Source of the DNA: Patescibacteria group bacterium
Lineage (GTDB): Bacteria; Patescibacteriota; Minisyncoccia; Phycocordibacterales; Phycocordibacteraceae
Length of the DNA: 53,093 nt
Assembly: GCA_004322365.1 (NCBI GenBank)
Contig: SCTS01000006.1
Coordinates: forward strand, 226,756-279,848
Direction: 5' to 3'
In this document: piece by piece, positions 26,267 to 41,246 of the stretch
How positions within the stretch are numbered: position 1 is the stretch's first letter
Layout: every line of letters begins with the position of its first letter
Translations under genes and position numbers: made by a program
Notes under the pieces: model-generated
Seen by the model: the letters and a program-made list of their open reading frames with translations, nothing else
Databases searched by the model: none
What the model was told of the DNA's origin: nothing

Positions 26267-26286
26267 CAACTTCTATCAATTCTTTT

Positions 26287-26312
26287 AAAAACCCGCCATA
26301 TGGCGGGTTTTT
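26287..26312. terminator. Intrinsic terminator (bidirectional)
   Basis: AAAAACCCGCCAT|ATGGCGGGTTTTT. Confidence 0.85.
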
Positions 26313-26315
26313 AAA

Positions 26316-26480
26316 TTAATGGGAGAGAATTTTTGGGATTGACGGGGTAATTTTCGCTTTCTTGCCGCGCCGACATGTACAAGGTGTCTGTCCCATATCA
26401 ATAAAACAGATGCCAGTATCGCGACACTTTTGGCAAGAATATTCTCTTCTGACAAATGCTGATTCTGTCGATGTCTTCAT
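26316..26480 (-). CDS. Possible 54-aa Cys-rich small protein
   Basis: MKTSTESAFVRREYSCQKCRDTGICFIDMGQTPCTCRRGKKAKITPSIPKILSH, with CxxC...C...CxC. Below the ORF-track threshold. Its stop abuts the terminator. Confidence 0.3.
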   Translation of the reverse strand: MKTSTESAFVRREYSCQKCRDTGICFIDMGQTPCTCRRGKKAKITPSIPKILSH

Positions 26481-26499
26481 ATCATGAGAAATGTTATAC

Positions 26500-26725
26500 C
26501 TACTGAAAAATTAAGCAAGTGAGAGTATCTTGCCCCAAGGGAATCGGGGTCAAGTTGCTAAGCTCAGACTTCGTCCGATGGACTCGTCTTTACTAAGCAC
26601 TTTCTCCCCGGGCTCGACCTTCAATCTTGAAGTCTGACTTCAAGATTGGCTTCGCGGTCTCCGCCTTTCGATTCCCTACGAAACATGCACTTGCATGCTT
26701 CTAATCCCTTCTTCGTTTCACTCAG
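26500..26725 (-). ncRNA. Candidate structured RNA: trailer element 3' of tRNA-Gly(UCC)
   Basis: Contains nested helices. These include a perfect 11-bp hairpin (26623-26647), a 6-bp hairpin (26684-26697), and a closing stem GGGAATCG/CGATTCCC (26669-26676 with 26539-46). It shares sequence boxes with the trailers of tRNA-Pro and tRNA-Arg. No credible ORF. Confidence 0.4.
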
Positions 26726-26796
26726 TGCGGGATAAGGGAATCGAACCCTTGCTATCAGTTTGGAAAACTGATGTTCTACCATTAAACTAATCCCGC
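26726..26796 (-). tRNA. tRNA-Gly (anticodon UCC), no encoded CCA
   Basis: GCGGGAT TA GTTT AATGGTA GAAC A TCAGT TTTCCAA ACTGA TAGC AAGGG TTCGATT CCCTT ATCCCGC A. All four arms pair. Confidence 0.9.
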
Positions 26797-26830
26797 GTAG
26801 AGCGTACTCTAGCAAAATATGTTCTGTTTT

Positions 26831-36250: not shown

Positions 36251-36470
36251 CAGAGTGAAACGAAGGAGAGGCGGAGGAAAGCACCTGCGTGCTTTCCTCC
36301 GAGAATCGAAGCGCGGAACGATGTTTTTCGTTGCGAAAAACCGTGAGCGGGCGATTAGAGAATCGTGCCGAGAGGCTCTGCGACCGAGCCGAACAGTTGC
36401 ACTCGCCAGTATGACGAAGCGTCAGGTGAGGCGAGAGTTGTAGGCAATTCTCCTCCTCCCCGACTAAGTT
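36251..36470 (+). other. GC-rich structured trailer element 3' of tRNA-Pro (paralogue of the tRNA-Gly-UCC trailer)
   Basis: 5' box CAGAGTGAAACGAAGGAG, a perfect 12-bp hairpin at 36273-36300, the anti-T-arm CCGAGAATCGAA at 36299-36310, and further stem-loops. Confidence 0.45.
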
Positions 36471-36876: not shown

Positions 36877-36890
36877 GTTTCACGTGAAAC
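36877..36890. promoter_or_regulatory. 14-bp perfect palindrome abutting the yraN-like start codon
   Basis: GTTTCAC|GTGAAAC. A second copy TTTCACGTGAAA lies at 37029-37040, and a degenerate TTTCCTGTGAAA at 37045-37056. Confidence 0.4.
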
Positions 36891-37125
36891 TACTTAAACT
36901 GTCTTTTACAAAAAATCTTTATTTAAAGCCATTTTATAGAATCATCAAACATTCACGGACAATCTATTATGTCCTTTATACACATAAGGCACAGTGTTAT
37001 CCACAAAAACCGCCATAAAGGTCAATAATTTCACGTGAAACGCGTTTCCTGTGAAATATAGCCTCAAAAGATGGGCTGGGGGTAGAAAAGCACCGCATGT
37101 CCTATTAAATTGATACCTCCCCAAC

Positions 37126-37435: not shown

Positions 37436-37560
37436 CAAAATAAAGGATGAGAATGCGAAGCATTATGGGACTATTATTTTGTAGCTCCCGGAGGGATTCG
37501 AATGGCGGAGGCGGCGAAGCCGCGAGCGAGTAGCGAGCGCACGCCGAGCCGGGATCGCGC
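37416..37560 (+). other. Inverted repeat that uses the tRNA-Arg 3' third as its left arm, followed by GC-rich trailer boxes
   Basis: TTCGAATCCCTCCGGGAGC (37416-37434) pairs with GCTCCCGGAGGGATTCGAA (37484-37502). The arms extend through CAAAATAA/TTATTTTG. Next come GGCGGAGGCGGCGAAGCC (37504-37521) and a GCCGAGCCGGGATC box. Confidence 0.5.
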
Positions 37561-37640
37561 AAATTTTCGACAGAAAATTATGCGTGATCGAATGCCTTTT
37601 GAGCTGTCTTGCTGGCAGATTCCTATCGTACAATGAGCCT

Positions 37641-39104
37641 ATGACGAAACTAGCAATCCCCAAAGAAGTCCTGATTGTTGCTGACGGTCTTGAAAATGCC
37701 GGATTTGAAGCCTACCTAGTAGGGGGTTGCGTGCGCGATATAGTTCTCGAGAAAAAACCAAAAGACTGGGATCTCACCACAAATGCAACGCCAGAAGAAA
37801 TACAAAAAATATTTCCTGAAACTTTCTATGAAAATACATATGGGACTGTTGGTGTAGTAGGGGAGTCAGAAGACCCAACACTTAAAGTTATTGAAGTCAC
37901 GCCGTATCGCAAAGAAGGAACCTACTCAGATGCTCGAAGGCCTGACATGGTGGAGTTTGGTGTTTCTTTGGAAGAAGATTTAAAACGACGAGATTTTACT
38001 GTCAACGCCATTGCGTACCGACCAAAAACAGGGGAGATGGTGGACCTACACGGAGGCCATGAAGACATAAAAAACCGCTTAATTAGAGCCGTAGGAAACC
38101 CAAACACACGATTTCAAGAAGATGCTCTTCGCATGATGCGTGCCGTTCGTCTTTCTGCAGAATTAGGATTTGCTATCGAACAAGAAACGGCTGAGGCATT
38201 GCATACAAATGCTTCACAACTTGAAAAAATATCTAAAGAAAGAATTCGCGACGAATTTGTTCGCATCCTTGAAACTGCAACGCCAATGCAGGCAATCTTT
38301 CTTTCACAAAAACTAGGGCTTCTAAAATATATTGCCCCCGACTTAGAGCTCGGTATCGGCATAGGACAAAACCAAGCACATTCATTCGATGTGTTTGAGC
38401 ACCTCGTGCGCGCCATGCAACACGCAGCTGATAAAGAATGGACAACTACTATTCGCTTAGCGGCACTCTTTCATGATGTTGGTAAGCCAGAAACACGTCG
38501 ATGGTCTGACGAAAAGAAAGATTGGACATTCCATGGACATGAAGTCATCGGCGCCCGAATCACAAAAAAAGCCCTGCGCGAGCTCAAGTTCCCCAATGAG
38601 GTGATAGAAATAGCCGTCAAATTAGTGCGTTGGCACATGTTCTTTTCAGACCCCGACAAAATTACGCTTTCAGCCGTTAGGCGCATGATAGTTAATGTTG
38701 GACAGGAAAATATTTGGGACCTACTGAATCTCCGCATCTGTGACCGCATTGGTACTGGTCGGCCCAAAGAACAGCCGTTCCGTTTTCGTAAATATAAATC
38801 GATGGTAGATGAAGCGTTGCGTGACCCTATTTCAGTTGCAATGCTGGCAGTTGATGGAGAGATGGTTATAAAAATACTTGGCGAAAAACCAGGGCCCCGC
38901 GTTGGTTGGATACTGCATGCATTACTAGAGGAGGTACTAGAGGACCCAAAAAAGAATACAAAAGAGTACCTAGAAGAAAAAGTTAAAGTTCTTTCTCTAA
39001 TGGAAGACTCTGCATTAAAAGAAATGGGTGAGGAAGGTAAGAAAGCCCGCGAAAAAGCGGAGGAGAAAGAGCTCGAAGAAATTCGAGCGAAATATCATGT
39101 CTAA
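37641..39104 (+). CDS. cca: CCA-adding tRNA nucleotidyltransferase (poly(A) polymerase family with HD domain)
   Basis: GFEAYLVGGCVRD, DWDLTT, RDFTVNA and HD region LFHDVGKP. Start set at ATG 37641. Confidence 0.87.
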   Translation: MTKLAIPKEVLIVADGLENAGFEAYLVGGCVRDIVLEKKPKDWDLTTNATPEEIQKIFPETFYENTYGTVGVVGESEDPTLKVIEVTPYRKEGTYSDARRPDMVEFGVSLEEDLKRRDFTVNAIAYRPKTGEMVDLHGGHEDIKNRLIRAVGNPNTRFQEDALRMMRAVRLSAELGFAIEQETAEALHTNASQLEKISKERIRDEFVRILETATPMQAIFLSQKLGLLKYIAPDLELGIGIGQNQAHSFDVFEHLVRAMQHAADKEWTTTIRLAALFHDVGKPETRRWSDEKKDWTFHGHEVIGARITKKALRELKFPNEVIEIAVKLVRWHMFFSDPDKITLSAVRRMIVNVGQENIWDLLNLRICDRIGTGRPKEQPFRFRKYKSMVDEALRDPISVAMLAVDGEMVIKILGEKPGPRVGWILHALLEEVLEDPKKNTKEYLEEKVKVLSLMEDSALKEMGEEGKKAREKAEEKELEEIRAKYHV

Positions 39105-40309: not shown

Positions 40310-41212
40310 TTACTTCACTCTTTTCTTTCCATGAAACGCCTTATGGACATCGAGGAGGTGTTTGTCAGTAACATGGGTGTAAATCTGGGTAGTGGCAATA
40401 TTTGCATGACCTAAAAGGGCTTGAACGCTACGCAAATCAGCCCCATTTTCCAAAAGATCAGTTGCAAATGAGTGCCGTATGACATGCGGAGTGACTTTTT
40501 TTGTAATACCCGCCTTAATGGCGCAACTCTTTATAATGTTCTCTATAGAACGAGGCGTAAGGCGTGAAGGAATTTTTTTTCCTGTACTGTGTCGAACAAA
40601 CAAAGCTTCCGCCATATCTTGTCGTGCTTTTAAATATGCAGACACGCTGGTCTTTGCGGTAGGGGAGAGAAATACTACACGCACCTTATCGCCCTTCCCA
40701 CGAACAGAAAGTTCGTCACGGGAAAGGTCTAAATCGGTATCAAGGGCACACAATTCGGAAACACGAAGTCCTGTTGAAAAAAACATTTCCATAATTGCTC
40801 TGTCTCGAAGCTCTTTTAATCCATTACCAACCGGAGCTTTCATTAACCGCTCTAACTCGGTTGCCGTAATGAGGTCGAGCGAACGCTCAGGAACCTTTGC
40901 AAGTTCAATGTGCTCAGGTGGAAGCGCTTTAATACCTCGTTTGGCTAAAAACTTTAGAAATGCACGGAGTGCAATGAGATAGTAGTTCTGAGTCTTGCGT
41001 TTCATCATGTTGCCATTCGTACCTGGCTGGCGATTGAGCCACAAGCGAAATTCACGAAGTTTTTCTTCACTTACATCAGCAACATCACTCGCTTTTGAAA
41101 ATTCGAGGAAGCGAGAAAGGTAGTGGTCGTAATTTTCAACAGTTTTTATGCTCCGACCTTTAGTGATCTCAATATATTCAAGAAATTCTCGTTTCAGGTT
41201 CTGAATATCCAT
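40310..41212 (-). CDS. Tyrosine recombinase XerC/XerD-like
   Basis: C-terminal catalytic region TPHVIRHSFATDLLENGADLRSVQALLGHANIATTQIYTHV. Start set at ATG 41212. Confidence 0.87.
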   Translation of the reverse strand: MDIQNLKREFLEYIEITKGRSIKTVENYDHYLSRFLEFSKASDVADVSEEKLREFRLWLNRQPGTNGNMMKRKTQNYYLIALRAFLKFLAKRGIKALPPEHIELAKVPERSLDLITATELERLMKAPVGNGLKELRDRAIMEMFFSTGLRVSELCALDTDLDLSRDELSVRGKGDKVRVVFLSPTAKTSVSAYLKARQDMAEALFVRHSTGKKIPSRLTPRSIENIIKSCAIKAGITKKVTPHVIRHSFATDLLENGADLRSVQALLGHANIATTQIYTHVTDKHLLDVHKAFHGKKRVK

Positions 41213-41246
41213 ATATAAAGTATATCGTGAACTTCGCACAATATTC

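Follow-up and report, generated by a model that had tools for sequence, protein, structure and literature searches.

What is the strongly structured DNA that follows the tRNA-Gly(UCC) gene in the genome of a Patescibacteria group bacterium, a member of the candidate phyla radiation (CPR)? The stretch under study (53,093 nt, hereafter the window, to which positions refer unless a contig is named) corresponds to C5:226756-279848 of a 787-kb, 8-contig genome of 44% G+C (G000; other G and L numbers denote the genomes and loci compared). A first-pass annotation of the window had described the ~225 nt behind tRNA-Gly as a candidate novel non-coding RNA (ncRNA) in the trailer, containing an "anti-T-arm box". 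The element is indeed structured, conserved and non-coding, but it is not a dedicated trailer of tRNA-Gly, since it belongs to a multi-copy, multi-class family with more than 20 such elements per genome. It is probably an integrated gene-less DNA cassette, of a family targeting the 3' ends of tRNA and tmRNA genes in CPR bacteria. This widespread family is not contained in Rfam 15, and no description of it was found in full-text literature searches.

All eight sequence stretches quoted in the annotation were located on the minus strand where it had placed them. The box AGGGAATCGAA (26677-26667) is the exact reverse complement of TTCGATTCCCT (26745-26735) in the T-arm of the tRNA, with ~0.001 such 11-mers expected in a 260-nt trailer. 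The box forms one arm of a closing stem, the partner of which is a duplicated tRNA 3' end: the downstream stretch CGATTCCCTT directly repeats the end of the tRNA, a relation that had escaped notice. The two stretches proposed to pair, GGGAATCG (26676-26669) and CGATTCCC (26546-26539), are present, and the box pairs as 5' strand (26676-26670) with 26545-26539 in 3/3 orthologues. The direct repeat comprises 10 nt at +178 and lacks the acceptor part, while its length in relatives is 17-20 nt (17 in G002, 18 in L171, 19 in G006 and L161, 20 in G030). As had been stated, no credible open reading frame (ORF) covers the region, the 64-aa frame at 26621-26815(-) passing through the tRNA. Known RNA families are not matched: scans of Rfam 15 at gathering threshold and at E <= 10 returned only tRNAs. 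A decayed tRNA gene or pseudogene was rejected, since residual collinear similarity to a tRNA (D-arm, anticodon arm and T-arm in order) is lacking: ARAGORN and the Rfam tRNA model match only the upstream gene, and the inverted copy reverse-complements the tRNA 3' strand including the discriminator and the next base and is not a copy of a 5' half.

The 200 nt behind tRNA-Gly fold with -75.4 kcal/mol compared to -50.6 +/- 4.1 for shuffled sequences (z = -5.99). In three orthologues (G000, G014 and G002; 78-80 % identical), 45 consensus pairs include 8 compensatory double changes and no broken pair, in agreement with a conserved, covarying non-coding element. The Gly-type fold consists of the 7-bp closing stem, domain I (compensatory changes at 5 pairs in the consensus fold of these three genomes) and domain II (3 compensatory pairs). 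The annotated pairing of GGTCGAG with CTTGACC is without support in the orthologues; covariation favours the helices GACC/GGUC, GGGG/CCCC and AAGUGCU/AGCAACUU, the last of which runs on into a 13-position helix of the annotation. Domain II is a divergent form of the helix CACUUAGU/ACUUAGUG of the class-A cores described below, to the consensus of which it is aligned by the covariance model R1.

Table 1. Parts of the Gly element, sister units in the window and the tmRNA locus
Feature	Position	Strand	Remarks
tRNA-Gly(UCC)	26725/6-26796	-	ARAGORN; Rfam tRNA model, 76.4 bits
X1			T-loop to 3' end of tRNA-Gly, TTCGATTCCCTTATCCCGCAC; segment copied by the unit
Leader TGAGTGAAACGAAGAA	26709-26724	-	Occupies the slot of the terminator hairpin T1 present in most units
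GGGAT	26704-26708	-	Remnant of the anti-acceptor box; full form GCGGGAT(AAGGGAATCGAA) intact in L161, L171, G014 and G002
P0 module	26678-26702	-	AG + hairpin AAGCAUGC-AAGU-GCAUGUUU + CGU; paired in the minimum free energy fold; hairpin 2 of the first-pass annotation
X'T ("anti-T box")	26667-26677	-	AGGGAATCGAA; reverse complement of T-loop and T-stem 3' strand
Core domain I	26611-26665	-	GGC/GCC and GACC/GGUC helices around the 11-bp hairpin AAUCUUGAAGU-CAG-ACUUCAAGAUU
Core domain II	26546-26609	-	Long irregular hairpin GGGG..AAGUGCUUAGUAAAGAC..GUCUGAGCUUAGCAACUU..CCCC
X2	26537-26546	-	CGATTCCCTT; repeats the tRNA directly from C56 of the T-loop onward; closing stem, 3' strand
Segment private to G000 (~267 nt)	26271-26536	-	Between X2 and the terminator common to the convergent HU gene
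tRNA-Pro(UGG) sister unit	36252-36453	+	Gly-type leader, P0 hairpin, class-C core
X'T of tRNA-Pro unit	36299-36310	+	CCGAGAATCGAA
X2 of tRNA-Pro unit	36445-36453	+	CAATTCTCC; decayed
tRNA-Arg(UCG) sister unit	37484-37596	+	Class-A core
X' of tRNA-Arg(UCG) unit	37484-37502	+	GCTCCCGGAGGGATTCGAA (19 nt)
X2 of tRNA-Arg(UCG) unit	37589-37596	+	CGAATGCC; decayed
tmRNA	C5:196756-197150		Rfam tmRNA, 99 bits; missed by ARAGORN
tmRNA unit	C5:197224-197319		74 nt downstream of tmRNA

ARAGORN predicts 43 tRNA genes in the genome, and inverted plus direct copies of the tRNA tail are present behind at least 22 of them as well as behind the tmRNA gene. The inverted copy (X') is the exact reverse complement of the T-loop, the T-stem 3' strand and the acceptor 3' strand of the respective tRNA (11-23 nt). 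The direct copy (X2) starts in the T-loop at C56/G57, extends over at most 19-20 nt and ends at the discriminator or 1-2 bases past it; as it repeats the tRNA from C56 to about the discriminator, the tRNA stays intact. The general layout is X1 - T1 (a hairpin with A and T tracts) - X'acc - P0 - X'T - core - X2, X' being often, though not always, split by P0. A search by nhmmer with ten seed units yielded 24 regions, each in the same orientation as the tRNA next to it, and the one region without an ARAGORN tRNA sits behind the tmRNA gene. At least three classes of core are formed in this genome: (i) class A behind Gly-UCC, Arg-UCG, Ile, His, Ser-GCU, Thr-GGU, Arg-UCU, Cys, Gln and tmRNA, (ii) class B behind Glu-CUC, Arg-CCU, Arg-CCG, Met and Lys-UUU, and (iii) class C behind Pro-UGG, Lys-CUU and Val-CAC. 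The 29-nt block reported to be shared by the Gly and Arg loci is identical at 25/29 positions, and the tRNA-Pro unit is linked by nhmmer to the tRNA-Lys(CUU) unit despite different arms (E = 2.4e-16 / 7.6e-16).

A covariance model (R1) was constructed from 41 class-A copies, none of them from the window, i.e., 39 copies from public genomes found with the pattern GGTCGAGNNCACTTAGT and two from G000 (Ile-GAU, Ser-GCU). Matches to this pattern occur in records of Kaiserbacteria, Paceibacterota, Saccharibacteria and other CPR/Patescibacteria. The model recognises the Gly unit (43.8 bits, E = 8e-9, 26539-26675(-)), the Arg(UCG) unit (43.4 bits, E = 1e-8, 37494-37596(+)) and, restricted to domain I, the Pro unit (21 bits, 36302-36366(+)), so that the recurrence behind tRNA-Pro and tRNA-Arg noticed in the first reading holds. 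R1-scored copies were obtained from 13 of 301 genomes, which is a lower bound resting on 11 scored candidates per genome and silent on absence.

Over the 30 consensus pairs of the 41 copies, 95.5 % of the cells are paired, compared to 77.6 % with shuffled columns and 27-37 % with the partners slid; the covariation score amounts to 0.455 versus 0.130 (reached by 0/500 shuffles) and 0.045-0.064, respectively. The variable pair x:y in AGxCG/GAGyC is CG in 14 copies, GC in 13, AU in 10 and UA in 4; thus the 3-bp helix G-x-C/G-y-C, flanked by A/G on both sides, occurs in all four Watson-Crick combinations. Conservation extends to a G.U pair, which is invariant in 40/41 copies, and to oppositions of A.G and U.U. 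For the variable hairpins P2 and P3, the tRNA-sense strand gave the more stable structure in 66 cases and the reverse complement in 18 (Wilcoxon p = 1.8e-5), and hence the folding strand is the sense strand, be it as RNA or as single-stranded DNA (ssDNA). It is on this strand that selection maintains the fold of the core. All class-A copies of other genomes with a tRNA nearby (51/51) lie on the tRNA strand.

The units are subject to turnover, as is evident from 20 congeneric genomes with tRNA-Gly(UCC) genes of 90-100 % identity. A class-A orthologue follows tRNA-Gly in G014, G002 and G006, and other cores with Gly-matched arms do so in G030, G003, G028/G019, G020/G009 and G010. Among these 20 congeners, no unit is found behind tRNA-Gly in G016, G005, G022, G032, G013 and G011; only G016 clearly keeps the same downstream gene and has ~250 nt of unrelated sequence instead, the tRNA-Gly genes of the other five being placed in different contexts. 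Closer strains were retrieved by exact look-up of an identical HU protein and retain the synteny RNase Y-HU-tRNA-protease. Their HU-tRNA spacers contain one unit (L170, L171; 259-271 nt), two units plus a cargo ORF (L175) or at least three units (L167, L168), and all end at the same native terminator beside HU. Within these spacers, units differ in core and in T1; T1 therefore travels with the unit, providing the tRNA with a terminator. Units that are present, absent or replaced at one locus point to inserted cassettes rather than to a conserved part of tRNA maturation. They stack in arrays, are swapped between close strains, decay and sometimes adjoin small cargo ORFs.

The Gly copy itself is old and chimeric: its class-C-type left end (leader, P0, X'T) has been joined to a class-A core at the AGGGAATCGAA box, and X2 is worn down to 10 nt. 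The joint is revealed by the metagenome contig L162 (flanks 93-97 % identical to G000), in which identity spans the tRNA, the leader, P0 (CATGCAAGTGCATG) and the X'T box, breaks after X'T and resumes only at the HU terminator. Past X'T, the core in L162 is of class C and is followed by a decayed X2, T1, X' and another core, which is of class A but distinct from the Gly-type class-A core that comes next to X'T in G000. The fusion explains why the leader GAGTGAAACGAAG, which has exactly two occurrences in the genome, recurs only behind tRNA-Pro(UGG), the bearer of a class-C unit; in G006, L162 and L167, class-C units begin with this leader too. The ~267 nt private to G000 are missing from L162. 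They include a 54-aa Cys-rich ORF (MKTSTESAFVRREYSCQKCRDTGICFIDMGQTPCTCRRGKK..., 26316-26480(-)) and look like cargo in a cassette array, because different small ORFs occupy the same position in L168/L169 and L175.

The arms of the units are of two discrete kinds. In the T-loop type, X2 reaches from C56 to the 3' end, whereas in the 3'-end type X2 is only CACA and X' complements the 5 nt on either side of the tRNA end. Of 15 cleanly parsed copies of the T-loop type, 10 retain an intact acceptor part in X2 and 5 possess an anti-acceptor partner, without co-occurrence of the two (Fisher p = 1). Retention of the X2 acceptor part without its partner marks X2 as a duplication not maintained as strand of an acceptor-like stem; it also weakens the case for a tRNA-like acceptor-stem mimic. 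Units of Val, Leu (two), Gly, Arg, Thr, Glu, Lys and His carry the P0 module as an insert of 22-25 nt (AG-hairpin-CGT) that precedes the core by 11-12 nt. The X' arms lie between two conserved modules, and X'acc, X'T and X2 differ with each tRNA while P0 and core stay the same. Even private substitutions of the tRNAs are mirrored in the arms (ATTCCGC in G004, ACCCCGC in G009).

In a tree of 48 cores, which is short and poorly resolved (2/45 branches starred), tRNA labels change 40 times (39.7 in shuffles) and Saccharibacteria/Parcubacteria labels 7 times (7.4 in shuffles), while arm type (T-loop versus 3'-end) changes 10 times compared to 14.3 in shuffles (p = 0.006). Near-identical cores with different arms are found in the Phe unit of L086 and the Glu unit of L132 as well as in the Pro and Lys(CUU) units of G000. 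On this tree, cores follow neither tRNA identity nor host lineage.

With respect to mechanism, one may speculate that the free form is a small circle T1-X'-core-X, the sense strand of which would fold into a rod capped by the three-way junction of the core and, opposite, by the T1 loop. The stem of this rod, formed by pairing of X' with X and continuing into the A/T tracts, would be a duplex replica of the 3' end of the tRNA gene. Recombination of the circle via X with a tRNA gene would yield the order X1-T1-X'-core-X2, and integration is envisaged to proceed on the folded single strand, as for CTX phage by XerCD or at integron attC sites. This model would account for the X1-T1-X' palindrome extending past the tRNA, for the need for X' and for strand-specific folding. 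The enzyme would act in trans. The sole intact tyrosine recombinase of the genome is Xer-like (40310-41239(-)), ~13.5 kb from the Gly unit and ~3 kb from the tRNA-Pro/Gly(GCC)/Arg cluster; its scores are 249 bits for XerC and 241 bits for XerD (both below cut-off) and 239 bits for the XerA type (above the cut-off of 220). A folded-strand route by an Xer-like enzyme is a tentative proposal that may well prove wrong.

Other mobilisers were considered. A retroelement-derived repeat (tRNA-primed or tRNA-like-tagged), or any other origin by reverse transcription, was rejected for lack of a match to the reverse transcriptase domain PF00078 in G000. Two Y1 transposase-like genes are present in G000; a mobiliser of the Y1/RAYT kind (REP/REPIN-type) was nevertheless dismissed, because Y1_Tnp occurs in only 4 of the 13 genomes with R1-scored copies (overall in 139/301) and is missing from the other nine (G047, G269, G299, G328, G356, G090, G117, G140 and G186). 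Within 2.5 kb of 81 class-A copies no protein family recurs; those encountered reach at most 7 loci and are ordinary neighbours. In viral contigs, the class-A pattern produced 7 matches, all lacking the second box and thus attributable to chance.

Folded single-strand recombination sites are known from CTX-type phages (attP(+) of integrative mobile elements exploiting Xer, IMEX, recombined by XerCD) and from integrons (attC). We infer a likeness of the CPR units to these sites from several features: an inverted pair of sites allows one strand to form a duplex-like stem; a circle, on integration, should give rise to the order site - rest - inverted site - loop - site, as observed; the structure of the arms is conserved rather than their sequence; mismatches in the stem are conserved; and folding is strand-specific. 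Further parallels are the single, Xer-like recombinase of G000 and the small cargo ORFs in arrays. In contrast to attP(+) and attC, the CPR units target the 3' end of tRNA and tmRNA genes instead of dif or attI, an integron integrase is not present, and the "loop" is a conserved three-way junction of 100-150 nt. To our knowledge, no ssDNA phage or plasmid stage of CPR units has been described.

Elements mobilised by tyrosine recombinases use T-loop or 3'-end sublocations of tRNA and tmRNA genes, as reportedly described by Williams in 2002. The CPR units share with such islands and prophages the direct repeat restoring the tRNA, the formation of arrays, the use of tmRNA as additional target and the variability between strains. 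They differ in their size of 120-250 nt without integrase or other gene, in the additional inverted att copy, and in that one core family carries the arms of ~20 tRNAs.

The closest parallel in design is RtT of Escherichia coli (Rfam RF00391, rttR), for which the tyrT-tyrV-rttR region of strain K-12 was dissected (L160, NC_000913.3 1286709-1287622). As in the CPR family, tandem units lie behind a tRNA on the same strand and combine an antisense box (GGGGAAGGAUGAGAA) with a sense copy starting in the T-loop. Within each unit of 178 nt lie GGGGAAGGATGAGAA, which apart from two changes in the loop portion is the reverse-complemented T-stem/acceptor start of tRNA-Tyr, a core of ~95 nt and the 19-nt direct copy AATCCTTCCCCCACCACCA; the Rfam consensus closes with an X':X2 helix, as does the Gly unit (26676-26670/26545-26539). 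Each rtT unit also holds AAGGTTCGA, which repeats the 5' strand of the tRNA-Tyr T-stem and the beginning of the T-loop in sense orientation, and one unit sits between tyrT and tyrV. However, RtT is confined to tRNA-Tyr in enterobacteria, has another core fold and is devoid of T1 and P0, whereas the CPR family serves most tRNAs plus tmRNA with several core classes. A relation by sequence or profile is not apparent: RF00391 has no match in G000, reaches at best 16.5 bits (E = 0.46; threshold 45 bits) among 40 relatives and gives nothing at 26400-26800 of the window at E <= 10, compared to 133-138 bits for the E. coli control. The CPR units thus have the same design but form a different family. 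Raised exonuclease-resistant coverage over E. coli tyrT-rttR under stress, the cause of which was left open, was reported in a mobilome-sequencing preprint (bioRxiv 10.1101/2024.07.17.603846). This coverage is compatible with, although no proof of, a DNA form.

The parallel with RtT raises the question whether the units encode functional RNAs of this type, which would be read through from the tRNA promoter, freed by tRNA-processing enzymes and act as tRNA mimics (decoy, sensor or regulator); the X':X2 stem would then be recognised by these enzymes as an acceptor/T-arm minihelix, P0 would replace the tRNA body, and genomic turnover would be a secondary matter. The strong, covarying fold would be accounted for, and the shared closing helix of E. 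coli rtT as well as the lack of a terminator ahead of the Gly unit are in line with it. Conversely, a terminator-like hairpin separates tRNA and unit in 42/51 class-A copies, which argues against a general role as co-transcribed trailer. Moreover, within the genus a given locus can do without its unit or hold another one, even next to an identical neighbouring gene; the acceptor parts of X' and X2 do not co-occur, as would be needed for selection on an acceptor-stem mimic; and many copies are decayed. An RNA function as the primary role of the units is therefore regarded as unlikely. The triplication of direct, inverted and direct copies could also arise without any mobile element, if replication switched templates by fold-back at two palindromes, that of the terminator and that of the T-loop (TTCGAA), with the cores as separate hairpin repeats colonising the palindromes later. 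The near-perfect long palindrome X1-T1-X', reaching past the tRNA into the A/T tracts of T1, and the self-complementary TTCGAA exactly at the X'/X2 junction would fit such a process. It leaves unaccounted for that T1, P0 and core move as units and differ by strain at one locus, that the same core classes are combined with two discrete arm types, and that copies of the 3'-end type lack the T-loop palindrome; no core-less triplication was present among the copies read. Template switching is accordingly considered very improbable. Hardly any credence is given to the remnant of an ordinary island or prophage with its own integrase, once inserted in the T-loop of tRNA-Gly and since mostly deleted. 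A direct repeat from T-loop to 3' end is said to be the classic signature of tyrosine integrases (again after Williams, 2002), and a decayed integrase fragment lies ~1 kb past the tmRNA unit. More than 20 units in a 0.79-Mb genome, with conserved cores of 100-150 nt and tRNA-matched inverted arms, speak against such a relic, and neither a recurring integrase or other protein family beside the 81 class-A copies nor more than chance matches in viral contigs were found.

Several observations weigh against a DNA cassette. No empty site with identical flanks was found among the 6 metagenome loci retrieved with the tRNA-Gly sequence, which included L161, L162 and L165. The conserved G.U, A.G and U.U features together with the sense-strand bias are as compatible with RNA as with one strand of DNA. 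P0 splits X' at the boundary between acceptor and T-stem (+/-1) in 9 tRNAs, reproducing tRNA topology; this boundary is meaningful for a tRNA-shaped RNA and meaningless for duplex DNA, which makes the position of P0 the one feature suiting an RNA tRNA-mimic better than a DNA site. E. coli rtT, of the same design, is reportedly known as a processed RNA from work of Bosl and Kersten in 1991. Since no terminator stands between tRNA-Gly and its unit, the unit should be transcribed at this locus; it is probably read through with the tRNA, T1 being absent, and any such RNA is taken as a by-product. The poor resolution of the core tree belongs here as well. Finally, the mechanism is deduced from the layout, and arms matched to each individual tRNA are unexplained by any simple recombination model.

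Further loci were noted. The tmRNA unit belongs to class A (R1, 50.8 bits); its anti-acceptor box measures 10 nt, and a palindrome of 28 bp runs through T1. The decayed Phage_integrase fragment beyond it (C5:198213-198434) contains two stop codons. Four units are stacked behind tRNA-Glu(CUC) (C4:34574-35129(-)) in the order class B, A, B, A, two of them with Glu-matched arms and one class-A unit nearly armless (GTGAC ... GGTGACCAC). The trailer of tRNA-Trp (C5 ~63950-64317(-)) comprises a long hairpin (GCCACGCCGAAG...CTTCGGCGTGG), a small ORF of ~77 aa and, at +360, a 13-nt direct repeat of the tRNA 3' end. By eye, this ORF looks GIY-YIG-like, and the trailer may represent a different, protein-bearing insertion at the same type of site. 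Between the tRNA-Pro unit and tRNA-Gly(GCC), the palindrome TTCACGTGAAA occurs twice (36879-36889, 37030-37040). The gene for the CCA-adding enzyme (37584-39104(+)) is located directly behind the tRNA-Arg(UCG) unit; its true start is probably the ATG near 37642, because the listed GTG (37584) overlaps the last 13 nt of the unit. CCA is not encoded by most tRNA genes of this genome.

Taken to its full extent, the cassette reading would describe a new class of mobile DNA: gene-less, rod-like ssDNA circles of ~150-250 nt, inserted by a host Xer-type recombinase or a junction-resolving enzyme, with rewritable arms, with insertion restoring the tRNA and supplying a new terminator, with arrays serving as integron-like landing pads for cargo, and with E. 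coli rtT as a relic. As a whole, this combination of statements is to be seen as a conjecture that may hold but is on present data rather doubtful. If the units are indeed cassettes, about half of the tRNA genes in these minimal genomes would be occupied by a gene-less mobile element that is shorter than every autonomous transposon known to date, which would explain several kilobases of a 0.79-Mb genome. In annotation, confusion of the units with pseudogenes of tRNAs, with att relics left by lost prophages or with locus-specific regulatory RNAs should be avoided. The matching of arms to tRNAs may be of use for programmable insertion, and through the design shared with rtT an oddity of the tyrT operon that has stood for 45 years receives an explanation that can be tested. 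For CPR bacteria, tRNA 3' ends would be marked as sites at which small genes are exchanged.

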